Positions 5,716 to 57,756 of a stretch of DNA of 64,000 bases are shown here, one piece after another. Positions within the stretch are counted from its first letter, which is position 1. Each line of letters begins with the position of its first letter. The notes under the pieces were generated by a model. It was not told the DNA's origin and made no database searches. It saw only the letters and a list, made by a program, of their open reading frames with translations. Both the position numbers and the translations under genes were made by a program. The stretch is from Schmidtea polychroa (Eukaryota): positions 55,428,001-55,492,000 of the forward strand of contig CM097887.1 of NCBI GenBank assembly GCA_044892525.1, read 5' to 3'.

Positions 5716-5869
5716 ATGTAAGTTTATTTTTTTACAAGATTCCCACATATGGGGGTATCTTTTGCGAAAATTATGGAATTATTTATTTTTTGGTTTGATT
5801 TGAAATATAATTTAACTCTATACGAAGATGATATAATTTAGTGTACCTAAGGAATAGTTAATGGCTACA

Positions 5870-6410: not shown

Positions 6411-7130
6411 TTTATAGTTTATATTTTAAAGCTAATATAATTTTATAATTTATACTTTTAAGTTTATAATTTATATTTGGTGAAGTTCAATTTATAGTTT
6501 ATATTTCTAAAGCTAATATAATTTTATAATTTATATTTTTAAGTTTATAATTTATATTTTTATGAAGCTAATTTTATGGTTTATATTTTAAAGCTAATAT
6601 AATTTTATAATTTATATTTTTAAGTTTATAATTTATATTTGGTGAAGTTCAATTCATAGTTTATATTTCTAAAGCTAATATAATTTTATAATTTATATTT
6701 TTAAGTTTATAATTTATATTTTTATGAAGTTAAATTTATGGTTTATATTTTAAAGCCAATATAATTTTATAATTTATATTTTTATGAAGTTAAGGTTATA
6801 ATTTATATTTTTAAAGCTAATATAACTTTATAATTTATACTTTTAAGTTTATAATTTATATTTTTATGAGGTTAAGTTAAATTTATAGTTTATGTTCTAA
6901 GGCTAATATAATTTTATAATTTATACTTTTGTAATTAACTTAGAGTTATAATTTATAATTTTACCGTCAATATAGATTTGTAATTTATATTCTTAGGAAA
7001 TTAAATTTATAATTTATACTTTTATAACTAATCATAATTTATATTTTGAAGAAATTGAATCTATAAGTATAATTCATATTTTTATGAAATTGAGAGGATA
7101 GTTTATACTTTTATGGGTTTACGATTGGTA
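6410..7130. repeat. AT-rich minisatellite, 81-bp unit with alternating variants
   Basis: AAGCTAATAT-like anchor at 6429, 6510, 6591, 6672 and 6753, decaying afterwards; GGTGAAGTTCAA and TTTATGAAG variants alternate. Confidence 0.85.
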
Positions 7131-11514: not shown

Positions 11515-11690
11515 CATATATTTTTCAATTATTATATTTTTCAATATTTATATTTTTCAATATTTATATTTTTCAATATTTATATTTTTCAATTATTATA
11601 TTTTTCAATATTTATATTTTTCAATATTTATATTTTTCAATATTTATATTTTTCAATATTTATATTTTACAATTTTTATATTTTACAATT
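11515..11690. repeat. 16-17-bp minisatellite (TTTTCAATATTTATAT)n
   Basis: About 10 near-identical tandem copies. Confidence 0.9.
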
Positions 11691-11705
11691 TTTTATGTTA
11701 AAGTG

Positions 11706-12379: not shown

Positions 12380-14010
12380 TGGCGACCACACCGAGAAAAT
12401 CGAGCTGATTCAAGCAGTGACAAGAAATCAGCATAGAATGATGGTTATGGAATCTTTACCTAAACAGGCAAAAGACATTTTAAATTTTAATATCAGAAGA
12501 TTCGAGGGCCGAAGCACGATAGAAGCAGAAAAATGGCTCAAGGATATTAAAGATTGGATGATCTTTAATGATCTAAATTTAGTAAGTATTTTGATTAGTT
12601 ATTGTCTGAAGAGGCATCTATTCTCTGGAAAGAAATTAAAGACATCCCCACAACAAATGAAAAAGCTCGTGAATGGCTTAATGACACATTTACAAAAAAG
12701 AAGTTCATTATGGACAAGATTTGTGACTTATCATCAGTGAAACAAAATCATGATGAAAGATTCGTTACATTCGAGATACGAGTAAAGAAACTCGTTGATG
12801 AGGTTTTCGACTGTGGAATTTCAAAAGAGAATATTGTTGAAATGATTTTGTGCAACAGAGTTCGAAACGATCGACTATTTATCCTTGATACGGATTCTAG
12901 TTTTGGAGCCATAGTTGCAGTTTTATCTCAGATTAAAGAAGACGGTACTGAAGGAGTGATAGCATATGGTTCAAGACATTTGACAACACATGAAATGGGA
13001 TATTGTGTTACTAGAAAAGAGTTGTTGGCACTCCACGAGTTTATTGTACATTTCAGACAATAATTATAAGGAAGAAGATTTGTAGCCAGAACAGATCACA
13101 AGGCATTGGTGTTTATGAACACGACAAAGAAATCAATAAGCCCACAGTTTCAAACATGGATGGAAAATTTATCTGAATGCGATTTTGAGTTACAATATAG
13201 AAAGGGAGAATAACATGGAAATGCAGATGATATGTCTCGTTTAACCCTTAAATGCATGATTTTTCCAAAGTGCGTATTCGAAAATGCTGCGCCAAGCTGT
13301 CAAATTTTGACAATTGAAAAAGTTAACTGCCATATTGTGACAGCTTGCGTTCAGAAACTAATAATATCAAAATAAAAGCAAAAAATACTGTGTTTGAGTT
13401 ACCGTTTAGAAATTATTTAAGGACAAATACACTGATGTATAAATACATCATCATGCATTTAAGGGTTAAATAATACGATATGCGCTCATTGTCAGATGAA
13501 ACACAAGAACGCCAAAGAAACAAAGTGCAGAACTCGGTACATAAATAGTCTACAAGGAAGTTCAAACATTATGGAAATTATTTAACGGAAGCAAAACGAA
13601 GACAAAATTATTTCAGAAATCATATCACATCTTAATGGAAATGAGGCTCATATATCTTATGAAGCAATCAGTAGTAATATTTTCAAGTATTTAAAAATAT
13701 TACAGATACAAGACGACGTATTGATGATTAATACAGATGGAAAAATTGCAGTTGTACCTGAACGCAATAGTACCTGACGCATACGTGAAAACATTGGTAA
13801 ATTATTTTCATATTGAATTATGCCATCTGGACATTTAGAAGACCTTATGTTATTTAAAAGATTTTTTCTTTCGACCATCCATGAATTAAAGTATTACGGA
13901 ATGTATTAATAAATGCAAGATCTGTGCTAGTAGAAAAATTGATCAAAGAAGAACAAAGGAAATCCGATTGCCAAGAATAGGAGAATGGTTTTTAGAACAG
14001 ATATCAATAC
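12380..14010 (+). mobile_element. Ty3/gypsy LTR retrotransposon remnant (PBS, gag, RNase H, integrase zinc finger)
   Basis: PBS-like TGGCGACC at 12380; gag FEGRSTIEAEKWLKDI; RNase H FILDTDSSFGAIVAVLSQ...IAYGSR...KELLAL...TDHKAL...GNADDMSR; integrase H-H-C-C (HIELCH...CKIC). Stops and frameshifts; protease, RT and integrase core are absent. Confidence 0.9.
13245..13465. mobile_element. piggyBac-type MITE, 221 bp
   Basis: 16-bp perfect TIR CCCTTAAATGCATGAT, with TTAA at 13241-13244 and 13466-13469. Confidence 0.92.
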
Positions 14011-15987: not shown

Positions 15988-16662
15988 ATTGTTAATCAAT
16001 GAGTATAAATATGTGAGTATAAATTATATTGTATTTTGTTGTTTTATTTTAGTTTAGGAGACGAAGACTTGTGAATATCACGGTATATTGAAAATTCAGA
16101 ATTTTAATCCTTTTTGCGCCTTAAGCTTGTTAATACACTCCTCTTGTCGATCTACATCAGGCAGACTATTTGACTTTGTATTCGTTTTACTTGTTAAGGC
16201 CGAGTGTTTTGTGTGACATCTCGATCTTGAGTTGATGAAAAAATATTAGTTCTGGATAATTAATTTGTGACGTTAAGATTAATATAAAAAGTTTTGAAAG
16301 TGATAACCTGTTTTAAATTTTCAGAAATAAATAATATAATACAATAAATACATTTCATATTCGACTTCATTTGATCATTTATACTTTCATTTCAGTCATT
16401 TGTATTATAATTCAACTAAACTATAATTATAAACACATTATATATGATATTATATGAAAACACTTAATTGGAATATTAATATTATTTAATTTAATAATAA
16501 ATGCAAAGATCATACTAATAAATGAGTAAAAGTAAATTTTCAGAATACTCAATCAAGTTTTCTTCTATAACATCTTGTTTTAATTTATAATTTTTTTAAA
16601 CTTAGCTTATTGTAATGTAAGTAATTTATTAATTATTAATAAATACTTTTATTATATTCAGT

Positions 16663-17783
16663 ATGTCGAACTTTTCACAAATTTCTAAAAGTGCTACTGA
16701 TTCGTCAAAAATTTCTAAAGTTGTCGTTCATCCTTTAGTCTTACTAAGTGTTGTTGATCACTATAATAGACTTAGTAAGGCGTCGGGTAGTAAAAGAGTA
16801 GTCGGTGTCTTATTAGGCTATATGAGAAAAGATGTCTTAGAAATAACTAATAGTTATGCCGGTAAAAAAATAATAGAAATTAAAATTTTTATAGTAGTAA
16901 TTTAGTTCCATTTGAAGAAGACTTAGGTGACAAAAATGTATGGTTTTTAGATCATGATTATCTAGAAAGCATGTTTTCTATGTTTAAAAAAGTTAATGGT
17001 AATAGATTTTTGAATTTAATGTATTTTTAATTCATAAGTTTAGCCAAAGAAAAAATTGTTGGTTGGTATCACTCTGGGCCTAAATTGAAGCAGAATGATA
17101 TTAAAATTAACGAATTATTCCGTAGATATAATCATTGTTCTGTAATGGTAATAGTTGATGTTGAACCTAAAGAGAGTGATGGGTTACCAACTGAAGCTTA
17201 TTTAGCAATTGATGAAGTTCATGATGTAACATATTTTAAGGATATATTATTTTTAAATAAATTTTTCAAGGATGGAACGTTGACTACTAAAACTTTTAAA
17301 CATATTCCTTCAGAGATAGGCGCTGAAGAAGCAGAAGAAGTTGGCGTAGAACATTTATTAAGGTAGTTTTAGATTAATAAATAATTATCTAAAGTTTAAT
17401 GCAGAGATATAAAAGATTCATCAATTGGTAGTTTATCGCAAAGAATTAAAAACCAATTAATGGGATTAGAAGGTTTGAAAGCTCATTTAAATGAAATTTA
17501 TGACTATTTATCATTGGTTATGACTAAAAATATTCCAATAAACTATTCCATTCTGTACCATCTGCAGGATATTTTTAATTTGTTACCCGACGTATTTCTC
17601 GATGACATGATTAAATCGCAATATATTAAAACCAATGACCAAATGCTTGTTCTTTACATGGCATCCATGATTCGATCGATTTTAGCTCTCCACGATTTGA
17701 TAACTAATAAATTAACGAACCGAGAAAAAGAAAATACCGAAGAAATGGACAAGAAAATCGATCATTCTGTCCAAGTCAAATGA
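16663..17783 (+). CDS. PSMD7: 26S proteasome non-ATPase regulatory subunit 7 (Rpn8, MPN domain)
   Basis: Exons 16663-16861, 16906-16998, 17044-17225, 17271-17362, 17405-17783 (945 nt, 314 aa); GT-AG introns of 44, 45, 45 and 42 nt. Motifs [21 protein letters not shown]...[48 protein letters not shown]. Confidence 0.97.
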
Positions 17784-21591: not shown

Positions 21592-22686
21592 ATGTATAAT
21601 TCGAAATTTTCAAGTTTCGGAAATGTTGTTGTTTGTGATCCCCAGAAACACTTATTGTATAATTTCACCGTGTATAAAGTTATTTATCAAGTTATAATTT
21701 TTATATATTTATATTTATTACACAAATTTTTTGCAGAGTTATGATGAATGCGGCAAATACGAAGTACATTAGATATTTTAAATATTTTAAAAATTGTATC
21801 AGATAGTAGTATTTAAGAGATTCAGCGAATTCATAAAGCTTAATAAATCAATGGAAAAAGTTTATTCATATTTATACGATTCTAAGTGTCCCCAGTTTTT
21901 TGTCACATCCGATTACCTTAGTATTTTATTTTTTATGAATAATTGAAAGATTTAATAATAATTTAGAGAGATTTGAAAAAAATACAATTGAACATAGACG
22001 AGAATTGGCTGAGAAATTTCTAAAGTTTATTTGCAATGACTCACAACTTCACCAAAACGACGAATTTATATTATTTCTAAAATCAGGTATACGGACATAT
22101 TTAAGTAATTTTATTAAAAAGTTTTAATCATGATAATATGTAATTAGAAAACGAAAACTCGTGTCCTATTTTAAGCACTGAGTTAAAAATGCACCATCAA
22201 GATTTGCAAAGTGAAGATCATTCTAGATTTGATTACATTTATCCAATAGATAACAAACTAACAAAGAATTTACATATAGCTGATTATGATAATTTTCAAA
22301 AGTCAGTAAATTTTATTACAGATGCTATTCAATTTGAAAGTTCTATCGATTGGCCAAATTCCATCAATAAATATATCGAATGTATTGAAACTTTGCTGGA
22401 TTTGAAGAAAGCTTATCAAAACCTAGAAATTATTCATTATGTCAACCACCAACTTCAAATGTGTTATAAGAAGGCCGAATTATTGCTGTATTCCTACATT
22501 ATGTATCATGAAGGCATTCCGAATAAAAACATTTCCGAATTGATGTTTGCGGATTCATCAACCAATCTATTGGTAAGTTTTTTAAAATTATTTTATAGAT
22601 ATTAGCATATAGAGAGAGATTTTATTATTAAAATTTAATATTAGCAGTCACTAGAGGACCATGCCAACATTGGTTACAGCGGGTAG
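21592..22686 (+). CDS. SNX15: PX + MIT domain protein (sorting nexin 15 / RPS6KC1 family)
   Basis: Exons 21592-21690, 21737-21763, 21803-21920, 21967-22086, 22148-22572, 22645-22686; introns of 46, 39, 46, 61 and 72 nt. PX: VCDPQKH...TVYKV...IVVFKRFSEFIKL...RFEKNTIEHRRELAEKFLKF. MIT: FQKSVNFITDAIQFE...Y..C...CYKKAELL. The last exon is the least certain. Confidence 0.8.
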
Positions 22687-23399: not shown

Positions 23400-24403
23400 T
23401 AGGCTTGCCAACTTTTGATTCGACCAAAAGCGTATTCAAATTTCTTTTAACCATATAGTAACAAAAATGACAAATAATTGCAATAAATAAAAATTGAGAT
23501 AAAATAACAAAACTCTTTTATTATAAAAAAAACAAACAAATATTTTTTATAAATAATCATACCAAAATACTGAAATAATTTTTAATTTTTAGTTTTAAAT
23601 TTATATTTTTTCGTGGATTTAGCTGCCTCGATTAATTTTTTATTTAAATCTGTGTTTTTTTTTATAAAAGTAGCAAATTCACTGCACGTCATCCCAAAAT
23701 TGAAATTGATTAATAATTCTGCTTTGACCATATCTGTTTGGAGTCTATTTCGCTGGTTTGTCCAAATATTTCCCATTACGCTAAATTTACGTTCAATGTA
23801 ACAATTGTTTGGTGGAACAGCAAATACATATTTGCAGAGTTTAAGCAACATTGAAGAATCTTTGTTAATTTTAAAATATTGTATCCATTTTTCAACGCAA
23901 GTACCAGTTAATAATGGAATAGTTTCATTTAAAATTCGCACTTCAGAAAAAAGTTTATCGCCATCAAATTCTACTCCGAACAGAGTTGCTACTTTGGATA
24001 CTTGTTCCAGTGATAGTTGTTCATCCAAGTTGAATGAACTACAAATATTAAGAAAGGAATCTGTGCTAAAATCGAACCATTTACTTAAATATGTTAGCAT
24101 TCTATTGTAAATTTCTACTCCTTCTGTATTTAGTTTATTCCTTTCTGATGTGCTTAAGTGTCGTATATTTTGGTGAACTTTAAATCCAAAAAACAGCTTG
24201 TCTCTACGACAGATTAATTCCATTCTTAAATCATCGAAAATAAAAACCAAAAATTGACGTCAATTTGACGATATTTTTATCCCAGCAAGCTAAAAGCGCA
24301 TTTTTTCGTATATCTATGAAAAGCGTGCGTATAACGTATACATGTTTGTTTTTTGCACGAAAAGCGTAGGTTACTCTTCAAAAGCGTACAGTTGGCAACC
24401 CTA
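23400..24403 (-). mobile_element. Internally deleted hAT element, 1004 bp
   Basis: TIR TAGG(C/G)TTGCCAAC at both ends; exact 8-bp TSD ATACTATT (23392-23399, 24404-24411); subterminal AAAAGCG(T/C)A repeats; ORF 23582..24250 encodes the hAT C-terminal dimerization region (FAVPPNNCYIERKFSVMGNIWTNQRNRL). Confidence 0.95.
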
Positions 24404-37412: not shown

Positions 37413-39507
37413 CAATGGTTCCCAACCCGTGGCCCGCCGGGCATAAAAAAGTGGCCCTCTCCTCAACCAAGAAAACTAAGAAAAAATTCACATTCACACC
37501 TTCTTTGGGAAAAGTTTGTCTTGAACTTCGCTTAAAACCATGATAAAACCATGATAAAATCAGATGCCAATTTAATAATAAAAGAACTATGTATCGATTA
37601 ATTTTGCTTGGTTTTCATCAATAATCTGATTTTATTTCAATCTTCTGATTTTTTTTATAAATTCTTTTAATTATCTAATTTGGTTAAAAAACGAGCTCGG
37701 AATTTAAAATCATGGATAAAAGAAAGTTTGAACAAAATAAAAACTTAGCATGTCGTGAATTTAATGACGAGTGGAAAGAGAGGTATGTGTTTGCTCTTGG
37801 TCGTAACGGAAAGCCGGTCTGCTTGGTTTGTGGATTTAGCGTTTCAGTTGTAAAGAAATATAATATGGAAAGACATTTCAACAGTAGCCATGCAGATTTG
37901 GTCGATAAATATCCAATGGCCTCTGATTTACGAAGGGAATTTATCGCCAAGAAGGAGAAAGGAATGAATGTCCAACAATCTTTATTTACTGCTATACTAC
38001 AGCAAAACAAAAGTATGGTAATTGCATCGTATGAAGTGGCACTTCTTTTGGCAAAGAAGAAGAAACCCTTTACTGATGGAGAAGAGATTGTGAAGCCAGT
38101 TCTTGAAATAGCCGCCAGAATGCTAGGAGAAAAAAACATTGAAGCCAAGTTTAAAGATATTTCACTATCGAACGATACAATGACAAGACGGGTTGAGGAA
38201 CTTGCTAATAACGTTAGTGAGCAAATTGCATTTCACGCATCAAACTGCAAGTTTTTCTCACTGACATTAGCGATACCGCACAGGTAACAATTTTTATTCG
38301 CGCGGTGAGTAATACTTTCGAGGTTATCGAAGAGCTGCTTGGACTTGAGTCCATACAAGGGACAACCAAAGGCACAAATTTGTTTGAGGTTTTAAAATCA
38401 TGCGCAGAAAAAAATAAATTGGATTGGAAAAGGTTGGATAGCATTTGCACAGATGGTGCGCCAGCTCTAACAGGCAGACATGTAGGATGTTTGTCTTTGC
38501 TCGAAAAATTTCTTGCTCGTCCACTTTTAAAATATCACTGCATTATTCACCAGGAGTCGCTTTGTGGGAAATCCATGAATATGAAGCACGTTATGGATGT
38601 AGTAGTGAAGTGTGTGAACAAAATCCGTGCAAAATCATTGCATAGGCGAGAATTTAGACAGTTTATTTCAGAATTAGATGCTGAATATGGTGAACTTGTG
38701 AATATAGATGGTGAATATGGTGAATGTGGCTCTTTTTACCAATCCTTTCAACTTTCCAGACAAAAGGATCAACTGCCTAGATGAGAATTTGCAACTTGAA
38801 ATTATAGATCTGAAATGTAACTCAGTTTTGAAAAGTCGATTCGCCGAGCTTCCGGTTATTCCAACTGCAGATGATATGATATCATTTTGGAACCTGCTCC
38901 CAGAGAGTGACTTTGAACATATGCGATCTTTTGCACAACGTTATGTTTGTCGTTTTGGTAGCACATACAGATGCGAGCAGTCATTTTCTGCAATGAAATT
39001 GATTAAAAGCAAGAATCGTTCACGCCTTACTGATTCGAACTTGAATGGACTTATGATTCTGGCAACAACTAAACTTCAACCTGACATTGAAAAACTGGCT
39101 TCTAGTATTCAGCCACAAAATTCACATTAAATCCAAATGCCTGTGAATATTTTTATTGAAATTATAAATATATTTTAACTATGATAATGATTTATTTCCA
39201 AATTCACTATCTCTGGACTTTATTGGTGTTCTATTTAATCCACAATTTCTTTATAAAAGTTAAAAACCAATATTTATCTCTGTAAATTAATTTACTAAAC
39301 TAAAGTTACTAATCAGGAATTTGCCAATTGTAAAATATTATTGTAAATTATGTCATATAAAAAATGTATCTTGGTTTTTTTCATCTAGGGTATTAACTCA
39401 CAATAAGGTTTCTTCTTCGCCGTTTTTTGTTGTTTTAAAAATTTTGGCCCTTCGTGCCCTCCACCTAAACAAAGTGGCCCTAGGCCAAAATAGGTTGGGA
39501 ACCACTG
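37413..39507 (+). mobile_element. hAT transposon (SPIN/Charlie/GTF2IRD2-like), nested, 2095 bp
   Basis: TIR CA(A/G)TGGTTCCCAACC; exact 8-bp TSD CGGTACTG (37405-37412, 39508-39515). Confidence 0.95.
37712..39130 (+). pseudogene. SPIN/GTF2IRD2-like transposase with deletions
   Basis: REFNDEWKERYVF...PVCLVCG...KKYNMERHF; KPFTDGEEIVK; SLSNDTMTRR; CTDGAPALTG...YHCIIHQESLC; FGSTYRCEQSFSAMKLIKSKNRSRLTD. Lacks LDES and the RWLS region. Confidence 0.92.
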
Positions 39508-40648: not shown

Positions 40649-42587
40649 TCAGTTGTTGGCAAGTTTAAAATATGATCGAAGAAAGCACAATATATCCAAG
40701 CTTTTATCATTTAATGATGATCGAATTTTAGTTGCAACTATTGAACATCCGGTAAAAACTTGCTCCGATTCTACGCTGGTAGGCGGTACAGAATTCAAGT
40801 AGTTGTAAGTTTTTTCGAGTATGGATCCGCGACAACCTTCTGCCTCGAAAACTGTCAGCTCTTTTTTGACAATACTTACTCTATCGTTTGCTGTTTTTGT
40901 CGTTTTTGGTACAATTTTGGAATTAGTTTCTTGACTAATTGCTCTGTCCAGTTTTTCTTGTAGAGACACCAATGCTTCTTCATCTACAGTTATTTCAATT
41001 TCTTTGTCTGATTCGCATTCCTGCGGTGGTTCGCTGGTAAACGGTTTGGACATACGATTAACCAACCCAAAAATTCAGTTAATAATCTGAGTTTTTGTTA
41101 GCTTTTTAAAGTTTAAATACAAGTCGTAAACTTGATTTCCTTTCTGCAAATATTGTAGCAAATTAGATAAGTTGGTTCGACTCTCGTTTATTCGACGGAT
41201 TATTGCTTCTTTGAGATGAAGAGCTAAATAGTTGTTGCCCAAATTATTGATTAGAAAAGAAATAGTTGCATCTGCTGTCAAAAGTGTTGAATCACGACGG
41301 CATAATGCTTGAACAGCTAATTTAACTGGCTCTAGTGTTGACAGAAAATTCTTAATCAAGTCCATTTCTTCTTCATTGAACGATAACGGTGATTTGATAT
41401 CAATCAATAATTTCAGTACAGCATTTTTTACTTCAAAAAAACGTTCTAGCATAACATAAAGACTGTTCCAGCGAGTTTTTATGTCAATTAACAACGATTT
41501 TCTCTACCAAACTCTGCTTTGATATATTTTTGAAGAATATCGTCATTTTTAGTTGGTAAGTGTCGGAACAATCTGACGATACTTCTTACTTTTGTTATCA
41601 ATGGTAATAGCTCATCTAATAATTCTGGTTCAGTTTCCTCAAAAATTAATTGAAATGCGCTATCGTAGTGATCAATTCTGATTCGAAATCGTCATTATTG
41701 GCTTCGATTTCAACTGTTTTCTGCTGGACTATCTGTGCAGGCTTCTTATACAAAATATCGACTACTGCTAGATCGATTGCATGTGCAAAACATAGCTGTC
41801 GATCACAGGTTAACAATCTGCCAACTTTTTTCATGACCGAAGCTCCATCGGTTGTAATACAAAAAATGTCTTCATACAAGCTCAAACTAAATGATTTTAA
41901 ATTTTCAGAAATCTGTGTGATGCACTTTTCTGCTGGTAACGATCCATGCACTCGTAATAACCCCAAATTCCAATGTTTTCCTTTGATATGCAGGTTTAAA
42001 TTCCGATATCGACGATTTCTTGTAGAAGTCTATTCATCGAAGGATAGACTGAATCGCTCGCCGTTGGATTTCAATCTTTGCAGTTCGACAGCTAATTTTT
42101 GTCGAATAAATTTACCATATTTGATTACCATATAACGAATCGTAGACTCCGATTCGGCACATCAAATCCACGAGCAGATAAGGATTTGCGCAGCTCCACA
42201 GAAGCTACAAAGATTCTAAATGGCAAACCATCAACAGCGGTCATTCTGGCTAATACTGCATCAAGTGAGTTGTCATCAAGGTTGAAAAAACTTGTAATTA
42301 TTGATTTTTTTTGCATTGTTTGCTGAGTTACTACTAGTTGAAACGATTGACGATAATTGAACATCGGATGCAGGTTTTTTTAACGTGTTGATGGAGTGAA
42401 CTGACATCATGTGCTTATGTAGTCCACTAGTTGAACCGCCACCCGTTTTTAATTCTTTATTAAACTTACACGTCTTACATTTTGCGAATTCTCCTGATTT
42501 TTCACGTAAGAAATAACCCCATATAGAAGTTTTTTCAATTACGCTTCGAGTGCACTCTACGTATTCCTTGATTTTGTTTGTGGACAT
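40649..42587 (-). pseudogene. BED-finger hAT transposase of the outer element, frameshifted
   Basis: BED finger WGYF...AKCKTC...GSTSGLHKHMMSVH; FSLSFDE; TTDGASVMKK...CFAHAIDLAV; DIKTRWNSLYVMLERF; PPTSVESEQVF...RSSL. Spread over several ORF pieces. Confidence 0.92.
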
Positions 42588-43215
42588 GATTGGTTTAAAA
42601 GGACTGGAAAATTTTTATTTTAAATATTGAAAACTAAATTTTTATAATAAATAAAAATTTACCTGACTTGACGAACAATGCAAATTGTTTAATATATTAT
42701 ACTTTTAATGTTTGGCACTATTATGATAACTGAAATTTCAAGATTACTTAGTTTAATGCTGTTTAACTATTTTAAAAATATTTACTATCAAATTCAAATC
42801 AAATATTTTCAGCTCACTTAAACTGCTCTTTAATTATTTCAAATTAATATTTACTATTCCTATGGAAATCAAATTTTTGCCGAACTTTTTTTTTGTATTG
42901 ACGACTACTTAGTTTATTTCAAAAAATCACTTTAACTATTTGAAATTAATATTTACTATTCCTATGGAAATCAAAAGTTTTCAGAACTCACTTTATAAAT
43001 TTTTTTCGGTACTGAATTTGACAACACTTGAGTTTATTTTGAATATTTTCGCATAATTTCACATACAAGTAGTCAGTACCGAAATCCCGGGATTCGAAGA
43101 TTCTCAGCACCGGGATTCTGGTGCCACAATTAAGCCGGTATTCCCGGGATCCCGGGATTGGATGCTCGAACTGAGATCAAGCAAATTCATTTAGGGTGAT
43201 GCAAATACTAATTAA

Positions 43216-43985: not shown

Positions 43986-46900
43986 TTATTCAAGACTGTC
44001 AATTTCAAGAAAATCATTTTCAAATGGATTTTTAAAAATTGTTGATCCAGCTTGATCAGCAAGACTTTCTATCTTTTCAAGGTTTTCCTCTCTGATCTTG
44101 TTTGTACTTTCATTTAGAAAGGCTTTGATTGGAGCTGCTTTATTCAACATCTTATTCTGGGAAGAAGGCTGTAATGTAATAGTTTCTTCGACATCTGAAT
44201 GAAAATAAATAGCTAATACATTTTGACACGTGTTAAATCTAACCTGTAACTTCTTGAATCAAAACCCGATTTGGCGAGGAAAATTCATCAAATGGAATGG
44301 ATTTGGGTATCTCGGTATCTGATTACAATAAGAATTTAAATGAATGTAAATCATTTACTTTGATTATATATCTGAAATATAGAATTTGAACGATCAACCT
44401 CTTCGTCTAATGTACTTTTATCGATTGTCTAAGATAATAAATTTATTTTCAAAGAAAACCCAGAAAAATTACATCATTCGATATTGTCAGTTCATCAGAA
44501 ACTTCTCCAGGGCCATATAACCAATCGACTTCTCCTGGTTTTACAATAATATCTGCTGTTGGTTCTCCGAGACTGTCTTTTTCATTTTTCAATTTCAATT
44601 CATGGTTTTTTGCTTCAATTTTTGCTCTTCTTTGACGAAGCCCTGGAAACACCGTTTATAAATTTCCACAGACTATAATTGTTTTACATTCGAAACTGTC
44701 ATCCATTCTTTTTTGTTCCATTGCTACCCATTTATTTCTTTCGTCCTTTTCTTCTTCAATGCCTCCTCGGCAACTGACAAAATATTTTTTAAACAATCGT
44801 AATTCGACTTTAATACTTACAATGCTTCTGCGCAAGCTCTATCTTTATCAAAGACAGGCCTTTCATCCAAGTATGTTAAATTTTTCTAGAAAAATTACTC
44901 GTTTCAATATGATTTTTAGATTATTATAAAACTTTTATGTTAGATTTTATTATTATTAAAATGGATTAATTACAATTTTCTGTTACTACATCCTAATATA
45001 GCACAGAGTTGTGTCTAAATCGTTTATTAACATATTCTAAATGAGATGTTTCCTATTTGGGTCATAAGACCTCTTTTCTTAGAGGGCTGCAGGATAATTT
45101 CTAAAGAAGCCAAGAGATATTCCATAATTTGTTGGTATAAATATGTACGATAGCTAATCTCAGTTCAAATTTTAAAGTCATCCATAAATAAGCTTTTTAA
45201 TAAATCTGTCCGCAATGTTTTGATTGGACATAATACCGCTATGCAAAGATGTATGCATGAAACTAAATATTCTAACTAAATATTTGTTGGGTTGTTTTCA
45301 GAATTTTGGCATTGTTATGAAGGTAATGTATATTTTTGTATCTTTCGTTTAACTTTTATTTAAATCATTTTTTGAAAGCTCGGAAATTATTTCTTATATT
45401 TTTATATTCATAGAATTATTACAAATTGCATTCTTATATAATGTGTTTTCATAATTATATTTTAGCTTTATCAGTTCTCAATAACAAACCAAATATAAGG
45501 AACTTTTCTCGTTTTTTGGCATTATAAAATTGATATTATTTTACAATAAAATTGAACTAAAAGCAAATATATTAGAGATATGGAAACGTCGAGAAATTTA
45601 ATAGAAATCAGACAATCAAACTCAACATGCAATAATATTATTTAAAACAGGTTATCCTACAGTTATCCTACAGTTACGTCAATTAAATTAACCATTCTAA
45701 ATCTAATTTCGGTATAAATTAATTTTCATTTTCGCATGACGTCTTGGATAAAATTACGTTTTTAGAGTGATATTCAATGAACTTTCTAATGACAAACTCG
45801 CATGAGTACCATGTAGGAAACTAGTATATATATATTTATATTAAAATGTATAAGAATCGTATTAAAGATGTACATGAAGGAATGAAATTTTTTAACTCCT
45901 ATAAATTTTAATTTTCAATGTAATTTTTATCAGTGTTTTTTTACTAAATTAAAAAATATATTTATTAAAATTTTTTTTTAATGAAGTCACAATTATATAT
46001 TTTGTTTTTAGTGAAGTCTAAATTTTTATATTTTCGTTTTAATGGAGTTAAATTTTTATACTACCGTTTTAATGAAGTCGCAATTATATATTTTGACTTT
46101 TAATGAGGTCTAAATTTTTAAATTTTTGTTTTAATGAATTCATAATTATATATTTTTGTTAGTAGTGAAGTCACAATTTTTATATTTTTGTTTTAATTAA
46201 GTCAAAATTTTTTAAAACTTACCAACTTGCAATACACCGGAATTTGAACCTTAAATGACTTTTCAATCGTAAACTGTAGTTAAAGTTCAATATCAGATTT
46301 TGTAGAGTTGTTTATGTAAACATATTTCTAAATTTCGTACAACAAATTTTCCTTTGTAATGTTAAATTTGTTGTATTTAGCGCAAAAACCAAAAATTCAC
46401 ATATAGAAGAAAAGCATAAAAAATGGGTAAAATCAATAAAAGTGCAAAATTAGTAAAAATTAACTAAAAATGAAAAATCAATATTGATCGTGTATGGATG
46501 AACGCCAAATTGATAGACGAGTTCAGTATTAATAATGAAAATTTAATAAGGTGTCCGCAGGGAAAGTTGATGCGAAAAAAATCAAATTAATTAAAATTAA
46601 TTAATCGGTAATGGAAAGCCCAGGCGCTGAAGGAAACCCGATGCGCAGTGATACCCGAGAAATAAGATAAAAGAGGAAATATTTAGAGCCCTAATCAAGG
46701 AAAAACAAATTAAAACAATCATAAACCCTCAAATATTGATTTAAGGTTCCCGGGGAAATAATTAAGTGCAATTCTCTAAATCAGGGTTTACCAAACTTTT
46801 TCAGCGACGGAACACTTGGCAAATCCGAAAAACTTTAGGATAATTTTTAGTATGGTAATTCATAATAGTGAGTTGTGCCTCTGGACGGGATTGCGTGAGG

Positions 46901-49900
46901 CTGACTTCCGCGCGATGTGTAAACACGAAAAAGCGAACTATCCTTTCGCGAACCGAAGACCATACTAACAAGACTTTAGCGAATGAGGTAAAAACAATCC
47001 CATCTTCGACATCTCTTTCATGCACACAGGATGAGAGATCTTTCTCCCTCATTAAAAACTATTGGCACTTGTTAAAGACTTTTATTGCTGTACCCAACTT
47101 CTAAAAATCTTCGCTTGCTCTTGATGTCATAAAACTCAATGAAGTTTAGCCATCGCTCGTTTTTCATTATGAAGTAGAATATGTTCAATTTTCTAAATTT
47201 ACTCCAAATTTTTGCGAAATATCTATTTAGGTTCCGCGGAACATAGTTTGGGAACCCTGCTCTAGATAATTGGCCTCTCATAAATAATATAAAAAGAGGG
47301 CTCAGAAATGAGCAAGCAAGTCGAAGAAAAAAAGAGAAAAGAAGCAGATATCCGGCGATCAGTAATCGAAAGAAGAAATCTAGTAATTCTAAAAAAGGTG
47401 AGACTCGTACAAGAAAAATGCCCCTTGAGTTTTTTCTACCTTATCGAGTGGAAATTTCTCTGGAGAAAAGTGCAAATAGTGACAAAGTGTAATTGTGATA
47501 CAGATTGAATAAAAATATTCTGTGTTGGGTTTGATTTATTTGGTTGAATAAGAACACGAGGAGTCAGGGAGGGAACCGACTTTCAAATAAAACCCAACAA
47601 ATTAAAGAAATGGTAAAAGCTAAAATTTTAACCTAGAATAAATATATAAATAAAATGTCACTTACGCAAAGATTTATAACGTGCTTTCGATAATTTTTTA
47701 CGTGTTTTATAAATTGATTTCCTTGAAGATAGAGAACTCTCTGAATGAGAAATTTTGTAGAATATCAGAGAATCATATAATTTTACCAATGATTTCATTT
47801 TGGCAAATATTTCCTCAATAACATTAGGATCACTGATCTGATTGTGCTGTAAATCTAATACTGAAATATTATCACAATATATCAATTCCTTCAAATCGGA
47901 AATCGTTTCAACTTTATTGTGAGCTAAAATCAGTTTTGTGAATTTTGGCAAATATCCTTAACAAATTAAAGAATTTTAATAATGGAAATATTTAATAGTA
48001 GATTAGAGGCGTAGTGAGGAGTGCCGAGCACATGTGGATATTGGATACAGTCAGTCCTACCCTTCCTACAAAAGTTCATACTAGTTCTATACTAGTATTT
48101 GTAATAGCTGGTGCTTTCAAAGAAAAAATAAATAGAAAGCTCTTTCTTAAAAATCCTACTCTTTATTCATAACATAGAACTAAAGTTGCCATCGCACAGG
48201 AAGGTCATTTCTATAGACTGTTGCTGTTTTACTCATCTTCAACAAAAGTCGCACGGTGAGCCATGGTTTTTATCACGGGCTAGGCAACATGAAGGCTTAT
48301 AGATACTAATAAGTTGCCCTAGAACTGGAGCTGCTGAGGTCATTAACTTGAAGTTGGGTGTAGTGAAAAATATAAGTAGAAATAGCCTGAGATGCTTTAG
48401 GAAATCTGGATCTGTTCATTCATGGTCTATGCCAGGGTTATTCAATTACAGAAATCTGGAAATGGTGGGGGTGGGCTGGCAGAGGCTCGGAGTAGGGGTT
48501 TAGAGAGGTGAACTGATGAGCACATTCAATAAATTTTTTAAATAATACACGTGCAATGGTGCATTTTGGAAGCTTTTAAAAGTGAAATAAAAATTTACTA
48601 TGTGTAAATTCTAGAATTTAATTCATGTGAAAAATATATATTATAGATATAAAATTCAAACAATTATAATTCTAATAACTCAAAAACAGATTTATAAAAT
48701 CCCTAAAATTTTGGGATATGTCCATGGGCCGCTAATTGAAAAGCCCTGGTCTATGCTATGTAATGAATGTCAAATAAATAAGTCCTGCTAATTCTCTATT
48801 TAACCCATATAGAAAGTATTAAAAGTCTGTTAGCAATTGAAAATATTAAACTGCTGAAGACTACTGGAAATTATATGATAAAAAGAAGATTTAAGTTTAA
48901 TATAGAACGGATAATAACTGGCATAGATACTAATCATGCGTAATTTCAAGATATGAAACAAAAGGAACGGCAACATCCAAATATCTGATTTCAAAAAAAA
49001 ATTTGAGATTGAAGGCGATTTAATGATAGGATGTGAAAGTAAAGTATTGTGAAGAGAATAACAGTAAATACTGGAAGAGAGACATATTTAAGCATAATCA
49101 GATCGGTATAAGACAAAAATAATAGAATGCTAAAGAGAATTGGAATGAATCTCTGAGAGATAAGATTATGGAATCAGAAACCCAACTAGTAACGATTGAC
49201 ATATTTGCTTAGTATAATTGCAATTTCCCATAGGCAAGACAATCAGGCAGATCCTTTTGCATAAATCGATAGTTGTTGCTGAGAATTTAAATACGAAGAA
49301 AGTTGATGCTCGTTATATATTAATTTTGCTGAGTGATAAATTCAAATATACATCACAATATCGCACCACAAGTCAATGGGAAAGCTTTATTGAGTTTATT
49401 TTTAGGTAATTTTAATTGAAAAATTGATCTAAAAAAATTAACCCTCCTAAACAATTTCATATTGAATACTACATACATACAACTATCAATAAATGTTGTA
49501 AAAATGCCTCGAATTGTCCCAGAAACAAATTTAGTGGATAAGCAGTATTTTGTTAACACATTTATCAAAATTCTTATGAATAGCATTTGATTGGTCGAAT
49601 CGTTTAAAAAAGAAAATTTATGAATAAAACCTTTAAAACATATTTTTATCAATAAATGATGTCTAAAAATGACCCTTTAATCGACTAATGGACAAATCTA
49701 ATGTATCGTTAGAATCTGTTAACACATTTACCAAGTTTCTTATAAGTAGCATTTGATTGGTCGAATTATTAAAAAAAGGAAAATCACTGATTGGACAATA
49801 AAAAGCCAGTAAAATCTGGTGTCAAATGCAATGTATTCTCCCATAATACAATTCTATGTGTTTCAGTAGAATTTTATTAGATTTTCTATTTAGATCTGTT

Positions 49901-51075
49901 AAAACTGGCTGTTTATTGATTGGTTACACTTAATGGTAAATAAGGCCTTATAGGATAGCATTTGTAAATAAACAAAATGTGACCTGTAATCAGTATTCAT
50001 TTCTCCACCCACAAAGCCTTTATGACCCAAAACAATTGCAAATCTCGAATATAATCTTCATTATACAAACACAAATAGTTTTAAAAAAATCAATAAAATA
50101 TTTGAATGTATCAAGTTAAATTTGAAAAAATATTTGTTAAATAAATATAACTTACTCAGATTTTCAATTTTCGATATCAAATTGTGGCTCAGATCGATGC
50201 TATCCAAATTGACTAGAGTGCCAATATTTTCTATTCTGGAAATCAGATTTTTGCTCAAGTACAAGCATCGAAGTTCTGTGAGCATTTCGAGATTTTCAAT
50301 TGTACTTATCCCATTAGTCTCGAGAAATAAGCACCTTAACCCGACATATTCGTCGAGATTTTCAATGAATGCAAAACCTTAATCAACTTTAACTTTTTAT
50401 TAATTAATCAAGTTGTTGCAACCTTTATAATGCAAATAAAGTATGTCGTTCAATCTTGGTGTTATGTAGAGTTTATTTTCTTTACAATGCTTCTTTAAGT
50501 AATCTGTAGTCATTCTTTGAAAAGCATTAAATATATATTGAAAAAAAGATTTACCTCGGCCATTTATGTTTCTCGATTTCTGCATCTATTTCTCGTTTAC
50601 GTTGCTCTTTCTCTTCTGTATTAATATTGGAAATATCATTCAATGGATGCTGAACTGTTTTTTCATCTTCCCCATCATCTGAGATATTTGTTAATATTGA
50701 TAAATCTAAACACATTGACGATTTGTGTGGATCTTCAATTGTATTTAAGTTTATATTGACAGTTTCATCATCGTAAATTTTGAAATTTACGTTATGATTA
50801 AAATTTTCGTCAATTAATACTTCATTTTTATCGCATTCATTATTATTAACATAACTTAAATTACATTTATTTTCAAGTTCTATTTCTTCGATATTTTGGT
50901 CAAATATACCATTTTCTTGTTGGAAATCAATTTCTTCAACACTAGAAATTGGAGTAGGTTCCGAATTTAACTTCGAATCTTCAGAAATTTAAAATGAATT
51001 ATATGAAATATATGAACTTAATATTAAAATATTACCTTCAATACCAACAACAAAGTTGTCGCAATTGTAATTCAT
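43986..51075 (-). CDS. DNAAF1: Dynein axonemal assembly factor 1 (LRRC50/ODA7)
   Basis: Exons 51075-51036, 50978-50555, 50514-50423, 50377-50156, 47956-47787, 47740-47666, 44885-44821, 44773-44688, 44642-44473, 44428-44359, 44318-44244, 44194-43986 (1698 nt, 565 aa; phases consistent). Motifs [48 protein letters not shown] and [20 protein letters not shown]. Confidence 0.93.
45880..46210. repeat. Degenerate AT-rich minisatellite in DNAAF1 intron 6
   Basis: Repeated TTTTAATGAAGTC-CAATTATATATTTTTG-like units of about 30-33 bp. Confidence 0.7.
46379..47599 (+). mobile_element. Solo LTR (copy B) with hAT MITE insertion; 5' terminus missing
   Basis: Colinear with copy A from AGCGCAAAAACCAAAAATTC to CCCAACA; TATAAAAAG near 47289. 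Confidence 0.7.
46782..47259. mobile_element. hAT (Charlie-like) MITE, 478 bp
   Basis: Imperfect TIR CAGGGTTTACCAAACT / CAGGGTTCCCAAACT; TSD CTCTAAAT/CTCTAGAT (7 of 8). Confidence 0.85.
48433..48748. mobile_element. hAT MITE, 316 bp, in DNAAF1 intron 4
   Basis: TIR CAGGG(T/C)T(A/T)TTCAATTA; exact 8-bp TSD GTCTATGC (48425-48432, 48749-48756). Confidence 0.92.
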
Positions 51076-52545
51076 TTTATTAACAATGAAGTATAAAACA
51101 AAAAAATCGTAACCTAGTTTCCTTGGTAAATTTCTATTTAAACAAATTAGTAAGAAAGTTTTTTTATGTAAATAAATAAAATTTGATTTTCTCGATAGAG
51201 ATATAAAGTTATTTGACGAATAATTTTTAATTGAATTATAAAATAAAGTTATATATGACATTTAAATTATTTTCTTAATATTCTGTAACTGTAATTACTA
51301 TTATATTTGGTCAACATTGCACTAAAATTAAGAGCAACAACTATTTGAATACAGCATCAAGTAATATAAATAAACAATTTTGGGCTGCAACAATGATATC
51401 TCTTAGAAATTAAAAGATAAATGAATTATAGATTTCATATAACAACCAAATTTCTCAAATAACTACATCTTTTACAGAATATCAGGCGTTTGTTCAAGAA
51501 AATATATAAAGAAAATTTTCATAATCGGAAGTTACTTCAACATTGTTTCTTAATCTTACACACTATTAGGCTCGTCTGGTTTATAGGTAGTTTAATTCAT
51601 CGTTTGGAAAGCTTATATTCCTTTTTCTGGGATGGGCCTTCTGAGTTAACAAAAGAGCATGGAAAACAAACTTAATATTTATCTATTTCTTATTACCGTT
51701 CATGATTCACACGAGTTTACATTGCTTTATCTGCTTATGGATAAGTGGCTTCGGTCGTGATGTTTTATTAGCCATAATTGATGTGGCTATAGTTGAGAAA
51801 GACGTAAATACTTATACAATAATAGTATAGTTAGAGAAGTGCCATCGCCAAACCAAAGATAGCTGTTGGTGATAAAACATACGACTAATTTTGAAATGTG
51901 TAAAATCGATTTTATATTTTGTTTTTAAAGAAGCAATTGATTTTTTATGGGTGTTGAATCCCCTTGAAATTGAAATCAGCCAATATCATTGATAATGGAT
52001 ACATCATTAAATACCTTAGTAAATGAATAAATACCAATAAACTAAGATAATGATAGTTAATTTTAATGTGCAGTTTGATTATAAATTATTTATAAGTATT
52101 TATAAACTCCTGACAGTAAGATCGAAGTGACTTTAAATTTAACTGCCCAGAAAAAACAGCAGAATATTTCTTCGTTTCTATATTAGGTTACAAATATTAA
52201 GACTATAAACTACCTCGGTGGATTTAATTCCTCATGACTTGCGCAAACAAACAAAGTAATATCGACTTTATAATTTTAAATTACAACTATTTTCTCTTCA
52301 ATTTGCTATGCTTTTGATTATTAGTCACTTGAAATCATCAAAGCTCTCTAGTCCCCATATATCTGATGGAATTTCAGAGCTCAAACTTTATCCATTAAAA
52401 AAGTGTTTTCAAAAATCATTAAGCCTAAATAACTAAAATCGAGACAAGTGTTGAAAATACTGTTTATAAGATCTACATTAAAGTTATTATTTGTCTCATT
52501 GACGTCTCAAAATTATCAATCCCATAATTTCTAAAATTCTTAATA

Positions 52546-52772
52546 CCGTATATTTCGGCGTATAAGGTGACCGTCAGATAAGACGAGGTACAAAATTAGA
52601 GCAAATTTTTATGATTTATCATATATCGGTTGTAGTAGTATAAATACAACTAGTATAAATACAACTACCTGTACTGTAATACTTTCTTTTATATTGGTTG
52701 TATAAGACGACCCACAATTTTCAAGGGTGATTTTTTGACTTTAAGGGTCGTCTTATACGCCGAAATATACGG
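52546..52772. mobile_element. pogo/Tc1-mariner-type MITE, 227 bp
   Basis: Perfect 21-bp TIR CCGTATATTTCGGCGTATAAG flanked by TA on both sides. Confidence 0.92.
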
Positions 52773-52787
52773 TAAATAAGTTTAGTA

Positions 52788-52995
52788 AGTATAGGGGTCC
52801 GCTAGATCAGGAGTCCGCTAGATCAGGAGTCCGTTAGATCACATTTAAAATTCTTTTCAAAGTCAAATATTTTAAGGTAAAGGTCAATTTTTTTTAAAAT
52901 TTTGTAATTTGAGAGTTCGCGCCAAGAGATATTATTATTTGTTAATTCGTTTTAAAGGTATTTGAAAAGGTTATAACGCATAGGGATAAAAATGA

Positions 52996-53055
<60 letters not shown>

Positions 53056-53957
53056 CCAATATAAAGGTACTGGTCACANNNNNNNNNNNNNNNNNNNNNN
53101 NNNNNNNNNNNNNNNNNNNNNNNNNNNNNNNNNNNNNNNNNNNNNNNNNNNNNNNNNNNNNNNNNNNNNNNNNNNNNNNNNNNNNNNNNNNNNNNNNNNN
53201 NNNNNNNNNNNNNNNNNNNNNNNNNNNNNNNNNNNNNNNNNNNNNNNNNNNNNNNNNNNNNNNNNNNNNNNNNNNNNNNNNNNNNNNNNNNNNNNNNNNN
53301 NNNNNNNNNNNNNNNNNNNNNNNNNNATTAGTTTTCATAATAATGATAATAAATTAAGACATTAAAAGATATATTAAATCACAGATCAATTCGATAACAA
53401 TTCGTCATCTATATCAATATCATTGTCATCATCATTGAAATCTAGACTTAGATCAACATCTAAGGCATCTATTCCTAAATAATGCCCAAATGCAAGACTG
53501 GAATTTTTCTCCACCCATAGTCGTTTGTCATCGTTGTTTGACAATGCAATCTTGGTATTTTTAAACGTAAGAAGCTGGTGGTTGCGTGTCCCTATTTTCN
53601 NNNNNNNNNNNNNNNNNNNNNNNNNNNNNNNNNNNNNNNNNNNNNNNNNNNNNNNNNNNNNNNNNNNNNNNNNNNNNNNNNNNNNNNNNNNNNNNNNNNN
53701 NNNNNNNNNNNNNNNNNNNNNNNNNNNNNNNNNNNNNNNNNNNNNNNNNNNNNNNNNTATTTTCAAAGACCTTTAAACGAGTTATCAAATAATAATATCT
53801 TTTGTCGGGAACTCTCGAATTTCAAATTAAAAAAAAATTTGACCTTTACCTTAAAATATTTAACCATTGACCTATATATTTGACCTTGAAAAGAATTTTT
53901 AAAAGTTTCCCCCGGAGAGGGGGGGTATGTGATCCAGCGGACCCCTATCTATCTACT
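52788..53957. mobile_element. Miniature Polinton/Maverick-like element
   Basis: Imperfect TIRs of about 190 bp (52788-52975 vs 53760-53957); both ends begin AGTA; 6-bp TSD TTAGTA/TTAGTG; carries a DNA polymerase B C-terminus. Confidence 0.7.
53386..53599 (-). CDS. C-terminal fragment of a Polinton-type (protein-primed family B) DNA polymerase
   Basis: KIGTRNHQLLTFKNTKIALSNNDDKRLWVEKNSSLAFGHYL matches the recalled pattern H.L.T....K.ALS..DDKR......TL..GHY; acidic tail; TGA at 53386-53388; 5' part runs into the N gap. Confidence 0.7.
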
Positions 53958-56900
53958 TTAGTGATATTTGTTTTTTGAATTATTTAGAAAATTGCCTAGA
54001 AAATTGAATAAATAATTTCAATTGAAATTCTGTTTGGTTTTAATTAAAAAGATAATACTAGTAGGTGATTCTGAATTCTCCTGTTTTACAAAATAAAACA
54101 AAGCACTATAAATACAAAAAATATTTGTATTTACATTAATATATAACAAATTGCACGCTCGAATTGTCATAGCAAGAAATGATATGCGTTATGAAAATCC
54201 AACGAGTCCCGCTGAAGCTATTTGATTCCTTGCACTCTGACAGAATATTCACGTTCAATTATCTGATCCTGATTTGATCTTAATTAATTTATTGACTTTC
54301 TTAATCCATCGTTAGCCCTAATTACAATAAACTTAGTATATTCGCAAATCCTACTCTCAAGTTCTTCACCCCTACGCGAGGCAAATTCTGGTGGCTTCTA
54401 ATTTCGATTTGTCTTATATAGTAGAATAATTCATTTAATTATTGTTTTAAGCCAAACCGCTTGTTTGACAAATTTCTTTGCGTGGCTTCCTTTCATAATC
54501 CCGTTTTATGCAACTTCCTCGTGATAATCTTTATCTAACTCTTCCCAATAATCATGCTGTCACGATAATCGCTTCCCAAAACCAACTTTGTTTATCATTT
54601 TTGTTGTTTAGATAAACTCGAATTATCTATAGTTAATTAATTAATTTTATTCCCTTGATTTATCAGACTTTTTGGTGTTTTTAAATTGCAGATGGTAAAT
54701 AATAATGAAAAGTTGTTGTCGAATCTTGACGGCAATCGATAACGTAAATTTTGGGAACCCCTTATCTTTAAGCTTTCACTTTAGAACAAGACTGTAGAGA
54801 GATTGGAATCGAGCTCTCACCAACTTAGAAATACTTGAAGACGGTTGGATAAAAACCGATATATTTTCTTAAGAATGTCTTGCGGCGTTTTTAGGTTTAT
54901 TTAAATTATAATCCGAAAATCATATTGAGCGAATCATATCTAATATATTATAAACGAAATAGGCTTGTCTTAGTTATTTAAACGCACTTAATATTTTGAA
55001 GTCAGATAATGCAAACTATGTTAGTCGTATTACTCACATACGATCGTAACAACAAGGTCGTTCTTAATCAACAATTATGGAAAATATTTTAACGGCTTGG
55101 CCAAGAAAACGTATCGACAATTAGGGAAATCTTAAAAATAAAAAGACATATGGACAGTCACTTGAGATAGTAAGAATGAACAAGAAAATCGGAGATTTCT
55201 TCTAAGTACCAGCAAATGATAGTCTATATATGGCAAAAACACAAATCAGAATTTAAGACAGAATTTAAAGGAAAATAAAAATTAAGAAAGTTAAAAATTG
55301 GAATCAATAAAAAGAGCATTGACTACCAAATTGATACCAATATCGTGAATCAAATTAATAATAAAGTATTAAAGTATCTGAGTTGAAGATATACCAATTA
55401 TCAGTTCAGCAACGATAGTCGAGTGGTTGTGTATTCAAACTTGTTATCAAAAGTGCTATTCCTCGCGAAGTGTTCCAATAGGCAATAATCTGTAAAAATC
55501 AATAAAGTTTTATATTGTCTGGAATTTTTTGTTGTTACCAAACACCACTTGCTTTTTTTGTCATTTCAATAATTAGTAATGCTGAGTTTTTAATCAGTAA
55601 TGTCGGTTAGTTTCTGACTCCTCATGTCCCTTTTAAAATTCAAATAATTAAGACACAACACAAAACCAATTTATTGATTCTCAATTTAATTTACACTCGT
55701 CGCTAATTTGCACCTTTTTTCAGAAATTTCTTTTGATTTACATTAAGGTGAACAGTCCAATGTAGCCTTGCCAAGAACGTAATTGTAGTTTTATTCAAAG
55801 TTTGCTTCTCTCTCTTCACTAACTTCTGTCTGATTCGCTTTTGGCTTCACCTCAAATAATTCGTTTAAATCTTTTTCTTCAACCAAATGGAAATTTAGTT
55901 CTCAACCGTCTCCTTTTTATACTCTCTCTTTCAAAACAATTTAATTGTCGTTCAACAATTATAATAGTTGCTTCCACAACAAGCAAATTGTTGGGCCTCG
56001 TCTCCTTGATGATTTATTCATTTTCACTATTATTTGATCTTATTTTGTGAAATAATTTGATTTTTTATTGAGTTTTGGGTCACAATGAGTTCTGACATAA
56101 GTGTTATAAGCAGCGATCCAGGGTGCAAAAATTTTAGAAGCAAAAACACAATGTTTTAAAGCAATATTCTTATGATAATACAAAAAACTATTTTTATAAA
56201 AACAATAGTTAGCGAATCTAAACTAAATCTACTATTCAACGCTAATTCAAAAACTCGACAACAATTATAGAATTATAAGAAATTTTTTCAATTTTCATCA
56301 CTGATTTCTTTTCAATTGACAATGTATTTATTATAGATCTCTTAACACTTCAAACCAGTTCAAAAACGCATTCGCCTTGCATCGACAGTGCGACGGTAAA
56401 TTTGCATTCAAGACACTTTTAGACACTTTGTTGAACCTATCTACTATTGATAATAATATAGATCAAATTTGATAAAGAACATGATAAAGAGTGCTATATG
56501 TTTTGAATGTTGCATCTATAATAATTTGTCCGGATGCTTTTAATTGCATCCCCAACTGTTTAAACACGCGGAAATTTTGGATAAAAATTATGACAAAATC
56601 TTTTGTTTATATACTAAATCTTTTTGTTTCAACCAATAAAAACTGATTGTCAACATTTATTATATTTTGATGTCTGACATAACTTATTTTCATTGACAAT
56701 ATAATTCTTTACTTATTTTTTTTGATAATTACAAATTGATTAATATAAAATTTTAACCTTATTTACTATCGACTCTATTATTTAGGCATTTATTATTTTA
56801 TTATTTTAAAGATTTATTATTATTTGTTTCCGCCAATTTTGGCGTGGCTTTTGTATCGCGTCTGTGTGCGCGGTTGTTAGACAGGTTCTATTTTTAGTGT

Positions 56901-56998
56901 GCGCACATAGACGCGAGAAATAGGTTTTTGTATTTTTATACTAGAGTTTTGAAATTGTTAGTTTTGTAGAATTGATTTATGTTTCTGAAGAATAGAAT

Positions 56999-57756
56999 TT
57001 GTTTTACGAGGAGGATTTTTGGATGTTTTTTAAAATGGAGTTTGATCATGTCATTGGAAATGAATTGATACATGATGATGATGTATATTCTTACAAATAT
57101 AAAGTAGAAATTCAAAATATGTTCAATAACAAAATTCGTTCATTTGATTTCCCCAAATCTGACAATTTCAAAATGAAAATCTCTTGTACATTTTTTAGTA
57201 TCATCCAAGATTTCGAAAATCTTAAACAGTCGTCGGAAAATGTTATTAAATCATCTGGTGAATATTATGACACCTCTATTAGACAAAGTGTTGACAGAAT
57301 AATTGCTGCAAAAGATAGTGCTATATATGATGCTGGAACTCCGTTTAGAATTACAAGTCAAACCATAGATTTTTGGTCAAATGCCACTAATAGTTTTGTT
57401 CATCGTTTCATGTCAAAGAATAATAAAACGGAATATGGAACTGCCGAAAAGAAGGAATATGATATTCTATTTAATCGAGCTCTTAAAAGGATAAACACAA
57501 TTCAAATGTTTGCTGGCAAAAGTGTTGAACAATTATCCAATTAATTAATTAATTATCCAATGTTTTGAATTCAATATACGATCAATCAGTGACAAAAAAC
57601 AAAGAATGGTTGAAACAATATTATGATGACTTCACAGATGAAATGATAACAGTTGTGTTGGATTATATTTCTAAAGTTAATAAAGAAAGTCTTCTTCTGG
57701 GTCTTAATGTTTTCTGTAAACAATTATTATTTTTGGTTCCAAGAATTATATATTAA
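56999..57756 (+). other. Intronless orphan ORF (181 aa) plus a frameshifted continuation (63 aa)
   Basis: An ORF of 181 codons is long for this AT-rich context; no family recognised; lies about 85 bp downstream of a conserved inverted-repeat element. Confidence 0.35.

Follow-up and report, generated by a model that had tools for sequence, protein, structure and literature searches.

An insertion of very probable Polinton/Maverick origin, short as assembled, that carries the tail of a protein-primed DNA polymerase

A stretch of 1170 bp, bounded by inverted arms and containing the end of a polymerase gene, raises the question whether a Polinton/Maverick was inserted at this locus and, if so, whether its short length is real. 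It was analysed within a window of 64 kb (the whole stretch of DNA examined), the GC content of which is mostly 22–37% in 2-kb blocks, and in which transposon debris is abundant (hAT, BED-finger and reverse transcriptase pieces in a Pfam scan of the ORFs). The window contains three N gaps of 254, 248 and 158 N; the latter two lie inside the element and make up 406 of its 1170 bases, and the piece between them is an isolated 273-bp contig (53327–53599). According to the best explanation, which we hold, as a whole, to be somewhat probable, the element sits between genes in an animal genome rich in AT. Its features are compiled in Table 1; Rfam matched nothing between positions 51500 and 55200.

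Table 1. Features of the element and its flanks (positions within the 64-kb window)
Feature	Position	Strand	Remarks
Probable target-site duplication, left copy	52782–52787		TTAGTA; 5/6 match to 53958–53963
Left terminal inverted arm	52788–52968	+	AGTA start; inner boundary dictated by the gap that cuts the right arm
16-bp tandem unit	52793–52841	+	3.1 tandem copies in the left arm, a single unit in the right
AT-rich segment	52969–53078		16% GC; (TA)n tract at 53000–53055; may still be arm
Assembly gap	53079–53326		248 N
C-terminal tail of putative protein-primed family B polymerase	53386–53598	-	70 codons and stop
Assembly gap	53600–53757		158 N
Right terminal inverted arm	53760–53957	-	Minus-strand start AGTAGATAGATAG
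Probable target-site duplication, right copy	53958–53963		TTAGTG

The arms were compared by local alignment of the left end with the reverse-complemented right end. A sequence-only reading had described inverted arms of about 190 bp, and these were recovered (181 bp on the left, 198 bp on the right) with 152 of 175 aligned bases identical and a score of 188.5, as compared to a maximum of 65 in 200 shuffles. Both lengths are lower bounds, because the match stops at the right-hand gap, which the alignment approaches to within 2 bases; for the same reason, the (TA)n tract, found as previously described, may belong to the arm as well. The inner portions of the arms are identical at 109 of 118 positions and differ, in addition, by a 20-bp indel and by small indels in homopolymer runs, which amounts to a divergence of about 8% plus indels; the sequence-only reading had mentioned neither this divergence nor the truncation of the right arm by the gap. 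Just inside the termini, the two arms are built differently. The left arm carries the 16-bp unit in the three copies reported before (93% matches, the third copy being imperfect) where the right arm has one, and the right arm contains a segment rich in G/C. A segment of 20 bp in the right arm is missing from the left. One base is common to all three left units and different in the single right unit; the triplication therefore would have arisen after the arms began to diverge. A role of the termini as hairpins was considered and dropped, the arm termini folding no better than shuffled sequences (z of −0.48 and +0.43).

Both termini begin with AGTA, as had been noted, and hence with the 5'-AG of Polintons/Mavericks, the left one reading AGTATA and the right one AGTAGA. 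The 6-bp flank duplication proposed earlier, TTAGTA/TTAGTG, matches at five of six bases; it can also be read as a perfect 5-bp duplication, TTAGT, with the left end placed one base earlier. In either form (5/6 or 5/5), it conforms, weakly, to the target-site duplications of 5–8 bp, mostly 6 bp, that are typical of the group. A match of 5/6 is expected by chance with a frequency of 0.9–1.1% for this fixed pair of ends, but of 17% when the ends may be chosen freely among 16 AG/CT pairs, and because of the latter figure the duplication is modest evidence, supporting rather than decisive.

The three pieces of the element are all separated by gaps, and this, like the unlike structure of the arms near their termini, would be compatible with a scaffolding accident or with misread ends, that is, with arms belonging to some other inverted-repeat transposon or to two insertions, and a misplaced polymerase contig. 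We consider such an accident very improbable, since AG ends, a duplication of 5–6 bp and a protein-primed polymerase fit one and the same family, and since the flank duplication suggests that both arms mark a single insertion. Formally, the ends could also be placed at GGGG or AGGGG, with TA or AT as the duplication, but 2-bp matches of this kind are a consequence of the inverted repeat as such. Ends of other transposon types were tried and rejected: hAT-type ends at TAGGG leave 4 of the 8 bases expected of an 8-bp duplication, Mutator-like ends 3 of 9 duplication bases and Harbinger ends 0 of 3, and the TTAA of TTAA-type transposons is not matched.

The open frame between the two gaps contains neither a stop nor a frameshift within its 70 codons. 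Direct family searches are blind to the encoded peptide: Pfam and PHROGs did not match the 70 residues, the ESM Atlas and the phage records gave no match, and among the PDB sequences only a chance match (E = 0.51) was obtained. The polymerase match is visible only through full-length relatives. A phmmer scan of 1.84 billion proteins yielded 26 matches at E ≤ 0.001, mostly within query residues 1–45; only about the first 41 of the 70 residues match relatives. Among these 26 proteins, Pfam identified PF03175 (DNA_pol_B_2) in two and PF02945 (Endonuclease VII-like insert) in one, while the other 23 (65–246 aa) were without a Pfam match. When the C-terminal third of one of the 26 proteins served as query, at least 120 polymerases were retrieved, and a profile was built from 118 new relatives among them, leaving out the peptide; the motif DTDS is present in 116 of the 118. 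Out of 1966 six-frame segments of the window, this profile matched a single one, namely the open frame in question (E = 4.3e-15, 52.4 bits); none of 1000 shuffles scored above 4.5. The peptide retains 14 of the 15 conserved columns. The suggestion that the frame represents the last 70 codons of a polymerase thus stands on the relatives-based profile, whereas the direct comparison with Pfam profiles was unsuccessful.

Among the matches listed, the closest full-length relatives measure 1242–1326 aa, and the closest of them, P0165 (1242 aa; PF03175 at E = 2.7e-32), shares 61% identity with the peptide over 51 aa at its C-terminus. Eleven of the best 12 matches show 54–71% identity over 40–51 aa of the C-terminus, and the remaining one 50% over 60 aa. 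Judging from these similarities, the frame codes for the C-terminal end of a family B polymerase of the protein-primed type. The environmental protein-primed polymerases P0165, P0167 and P0176 combine PF03175 with an Endonuclease VII-like insert and have a C-terminus like that of the peptide, and several relatives of this kind end, as the peptide does, in an acidic tail; however, their records come without genomic context, and no near-identical longer protein was found among 126 candidates in a word-index search, which is a weak test. Within the sets searched, the polymerase is without a close relative, the best match being 71% over 41 aa. Polymerases of this type are divided into Alpha and Beta subgroups in PMC8502044 and into pPolB1 and pPolB2 in PMC10748475. 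No solved structure matched P0165 below E = 0.08. A phage or prokaryotic plasmid polymerase was also considered as a candidate and rejected: the peptide (P0001) had no match in phage records or prokaryotic genome contigs, and its relatives P0020 and P0165 had none among plasmids or prokaryotic genome contigs, collections outside which eukaryotic linear plasmids fall.

About 1200 codons of the polymerase are missing, and the 158-N gap as written is too small to hold them. Searching the window by tblastn with nine relatives revealed no other polymerase piece, the remaining matches having E values of at least 0.025. Genes for integrase, capsid, ATPase and protease were found neither in 34 of the 44 ORFs of at least 100 aa, the interior of the element being gapped, nor in 30 of the 66 ORFs of at least 55 aa located at 44–64 kb. 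As assembled, the element is predicted to encode no working enzyme and to be incapable of moving alone.

Polintons encode a protein-primed polymerase that copies them from their ends, and their insertion, by an integrase of retroviral type, leaves a short duplication. The publication cited here gives a protein-primed PolB, terminal inverted repeats of 100–1500 bp and a duplication of 5–8 bp as their hallmarks, and states that they are present in most invertebrate phyla (PMC10748475). With respect to the polymerase (though by a C-terminal fragment only), the arm length of at least 181 and 198 bp, the size of the duplication and the AG ends, the element resembles the Polintons/Mavericks (polintoviruses, adintoviruses). 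Its termini, however, correspond exactly to neither of the motifs (AG)3 and (AGT)2 given for the ends of vertebrate Mavericks in the section cited (PMC8097293). Because long AG-ended arms, a duplication of 5–6 bp and a protein-primed polymerase occur together, we consider a Polinton/Maverick origin, as suggested by the sequence-only reading, very probable; some doubt remains because gaps separate the three pieces and because the relatives of the polymerase come without genomic context. The placement of this polymerase clade in the Polintons rather than in the Polinton-like viruses rests on the anatomy of the element.

As to the length, it appears rather probable that the element is an old and defective insertion of a Polinton/Maverick from which most of the interior has disappeared, its real length being about 1–2 kb. 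An internally deleted old copy is the likeliest reading; it was not among the two options of the sequence-only reading, which were a short derivative mobilised in trans and a full element collapsed into the gaps. A divergence of the arms by about 8% in addition to their indels, and a mismatch in the duplication, suggest age. Insertion by a retrovirus-like integrase would have left the duplication of 5–6 bp, most of the coding sequence would have been deleted after or during insertion, and the arms may then have drifted apart by substitutions, the triplication of the left 16-bp unit, and indels. The gaps probably represent TA-rich or repeated sequence with which short reads could not cope. The right gap opens at a position that mirrors the (TA)n region, and a mirrored TA tract is a likely cause of an assembly break. 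Since the gap sizes of 254, 248 and 158 N are unequal and non-round, they would be estimated distances, summing to an element of 1.2 kb. Such a relic shows only that this animal lineage once hosted a Polinton.

Alternatively, the element may be a much longer, possibly full-length Polinton, the interior of which collapsed in the short-read assembly, so that the scaffolder joined the ends around a repeat contig with the polymerase tail. Contigs that enter a repeat for 200–290 bp and then break are a usual sign of a collapsed repeat, and the arms indeed reach just 200–290 bp from the unique flanks; moreover, more than a third of the element consists of N, the open polymerase frame continues directly into the right gap, and the middle contig is isolated and well conserved. 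We nevertheless regard a collapsed longer element as unlikely. The gap sizes, which look estimated, give a total of 1.2 kb, and an interior of 13–25 kb would presumably not be spanned by read pairs unless these were very long. A young full copy is expected to have near-identical arms, in contrast to those observed, while an old one is expected to assemble as unique sequence. If a collapse did occur, the locus flags a full-length element that is absent from the assembly.

The state of the polymerase tail, which looks better preserved than the arms, bears on the same alternative. For neutral decay at the arms' own rates, the probability of finding no stop is 0.72, and that of finding 11 conserved columns unchanged is 0.33, these columns being taken from an alignment that had itself been selected for similarity to the peptide. 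The probability of finding no indel in 210 bp ranges from 0.01 to 0.41 depending on how indels are counted, one of the five indels being located at the edge of the variable zone. The figures lean, if weakly, towards a collapsed or younger repeat as the source of the middle piece. Moreover, the stop of the polymerase frame faces the left arm, and an internally deleted copy therefore requires either a parent with an outward layout or two large deletions. In the section cited, the gene modules of most vertebrate Mavericks are described as pointing to the centre, with the cane toad as an outward-facing exception (PMC8097293).

A short element with both ends might also be mobile in trans. In the names of Polinton families, N1 denotes non-autonomous families, and families of the Polinton-1N1_DR type would share ends without having the full gene set. 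The element could belong to such a short family and, like a defective viral genome with both ends intact, depend for its copying and insertion on a full-length helper that supplies polymerase and integrase. Both ends and the duplication, presumably what a helper requires, are present, and a zebrafish family is mentioned by the name Polinton-1N1_DR in the part of the paper cited (PMC9341505), but a second copy of the arm or of the polymerase piece was not found within the 64-kb window, which is a weak test confined to that window, and the diverged arms and the imperfect duplication give no sign of recent movement. Membership in a mobilised short family thus seems quite unlikely. Even less probable is a special case in which mini-Polintons of 1.2 kb, their arms unequal, form a family that spreads in this isolated animal lineage as satellites of the full-length elements, moved by a helper integrase without the end-copying replication that equalises the arms. 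To our knowledge, movement of a Polinton has never been shown in experiment. A short mobilised family, if real, would provide a natural minimal substrate and mark the cis-acting end sequences that a Polinton needs.

Several other features of the window were recorded. A MITE of 231 bp (52544–52774), flanked by TA at either end and having 29-bp inverted ends that are 93% complementary, terminates 13 bp to the left of the Polinton end; its ends resemble those of pogo/Tc2-type elements. According to BLAST, its inverted match extends to 52521–52572/52746–52795 (83%), but this extension is probably due to chance in AT-rich DNA. A spliced leucine-rich-repeat gene at 47658–51000 (-), with Pfam LRR matches and an acidic N-terminal exon, presumably codes for the cilia dynein assembly factor DNAAF1; the Polinton element lies about 1.8 kb upstream of it. 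The proteasome gene Rpn8/PSMD7 at 16654–17780 (+) contains three introns of 42–45 nt with GT-AG pairs. Its last exon is 98% identical to P0032 but unusually distant from named animals, which reach no more than 65% identity among the 120 matches listed; the host is read as a fast-evolving invertebrate from the Rpn8 distance and the short introns. Broken hAT transposase remnants with dimerisation domains (Pfam) are located at 23582–24259 (-), 37688–39130 (+) and 40649–42614 (-); one of them carries a Spin-doc zinc finger, another a BED finger. A piece of the reverse transcriptase (RNase H) of an LTR retrotransposon lies at 12599–13063 (+). Tandem arrays occur at 116–909 (140-bp unit, 5.7 copies, 93%), 5835–7066 (118/81-bp units), 11517–11693 (16-bp unit, 11 copies, 95%) and 45976–46212 (30–31-bp unit), and a dispersed repeat is present in two diverged copies (77–87%) at 32021–32348/46379–46711 and 33117–33237/46710–47317. 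Two open frames of 182 and 67 aa at 56996–57756 (+) read like exons of one gene and are without a Pfam match, and an open frame at 22144–22605 (+) gave a weak MIT-domain match (E = 0.003) under the curated cut-off.

An intact autonomous Polinton comprises 13–25 kb with genes for capsid, ATPase and protease. Unlike such elements, the one described here measures 1170 bp as assembled and possesses diverged arms, and its 764 known bases contain neither integrase nor capsid, ATPase or protease sequence; the contrast in length and gene content would lapse if the gaps hid a collapse. In the literature covered, short or non-autonomous Polintons appear in passing mentions only, which is not evidence of their absence, the original Polinton description and supplementary family lists being outside that scope. 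Insect polinton insertions without polB are described in a preprint cited here in part (bioRxiv 10.1101/2025.02.07.637071). Degraded Mavericks, on the other hand, are the norm in published surveys, as far as the cited sections of these go: 96% of the vertebrate Maverick loci are eroded (PMC8097293), and Maverick consensus sequences of the Hessian fly, Mayetiola destructor, comprise 600–4500 bp and retain nothing but polymerase or integrase (PMC8504770). The degraded Mavericks of animal genomes are likewise short and deleted, with a partial polymerase only; whereas many of their loci are without discernible arms, both ends and the flank duplication persist in the element described here.
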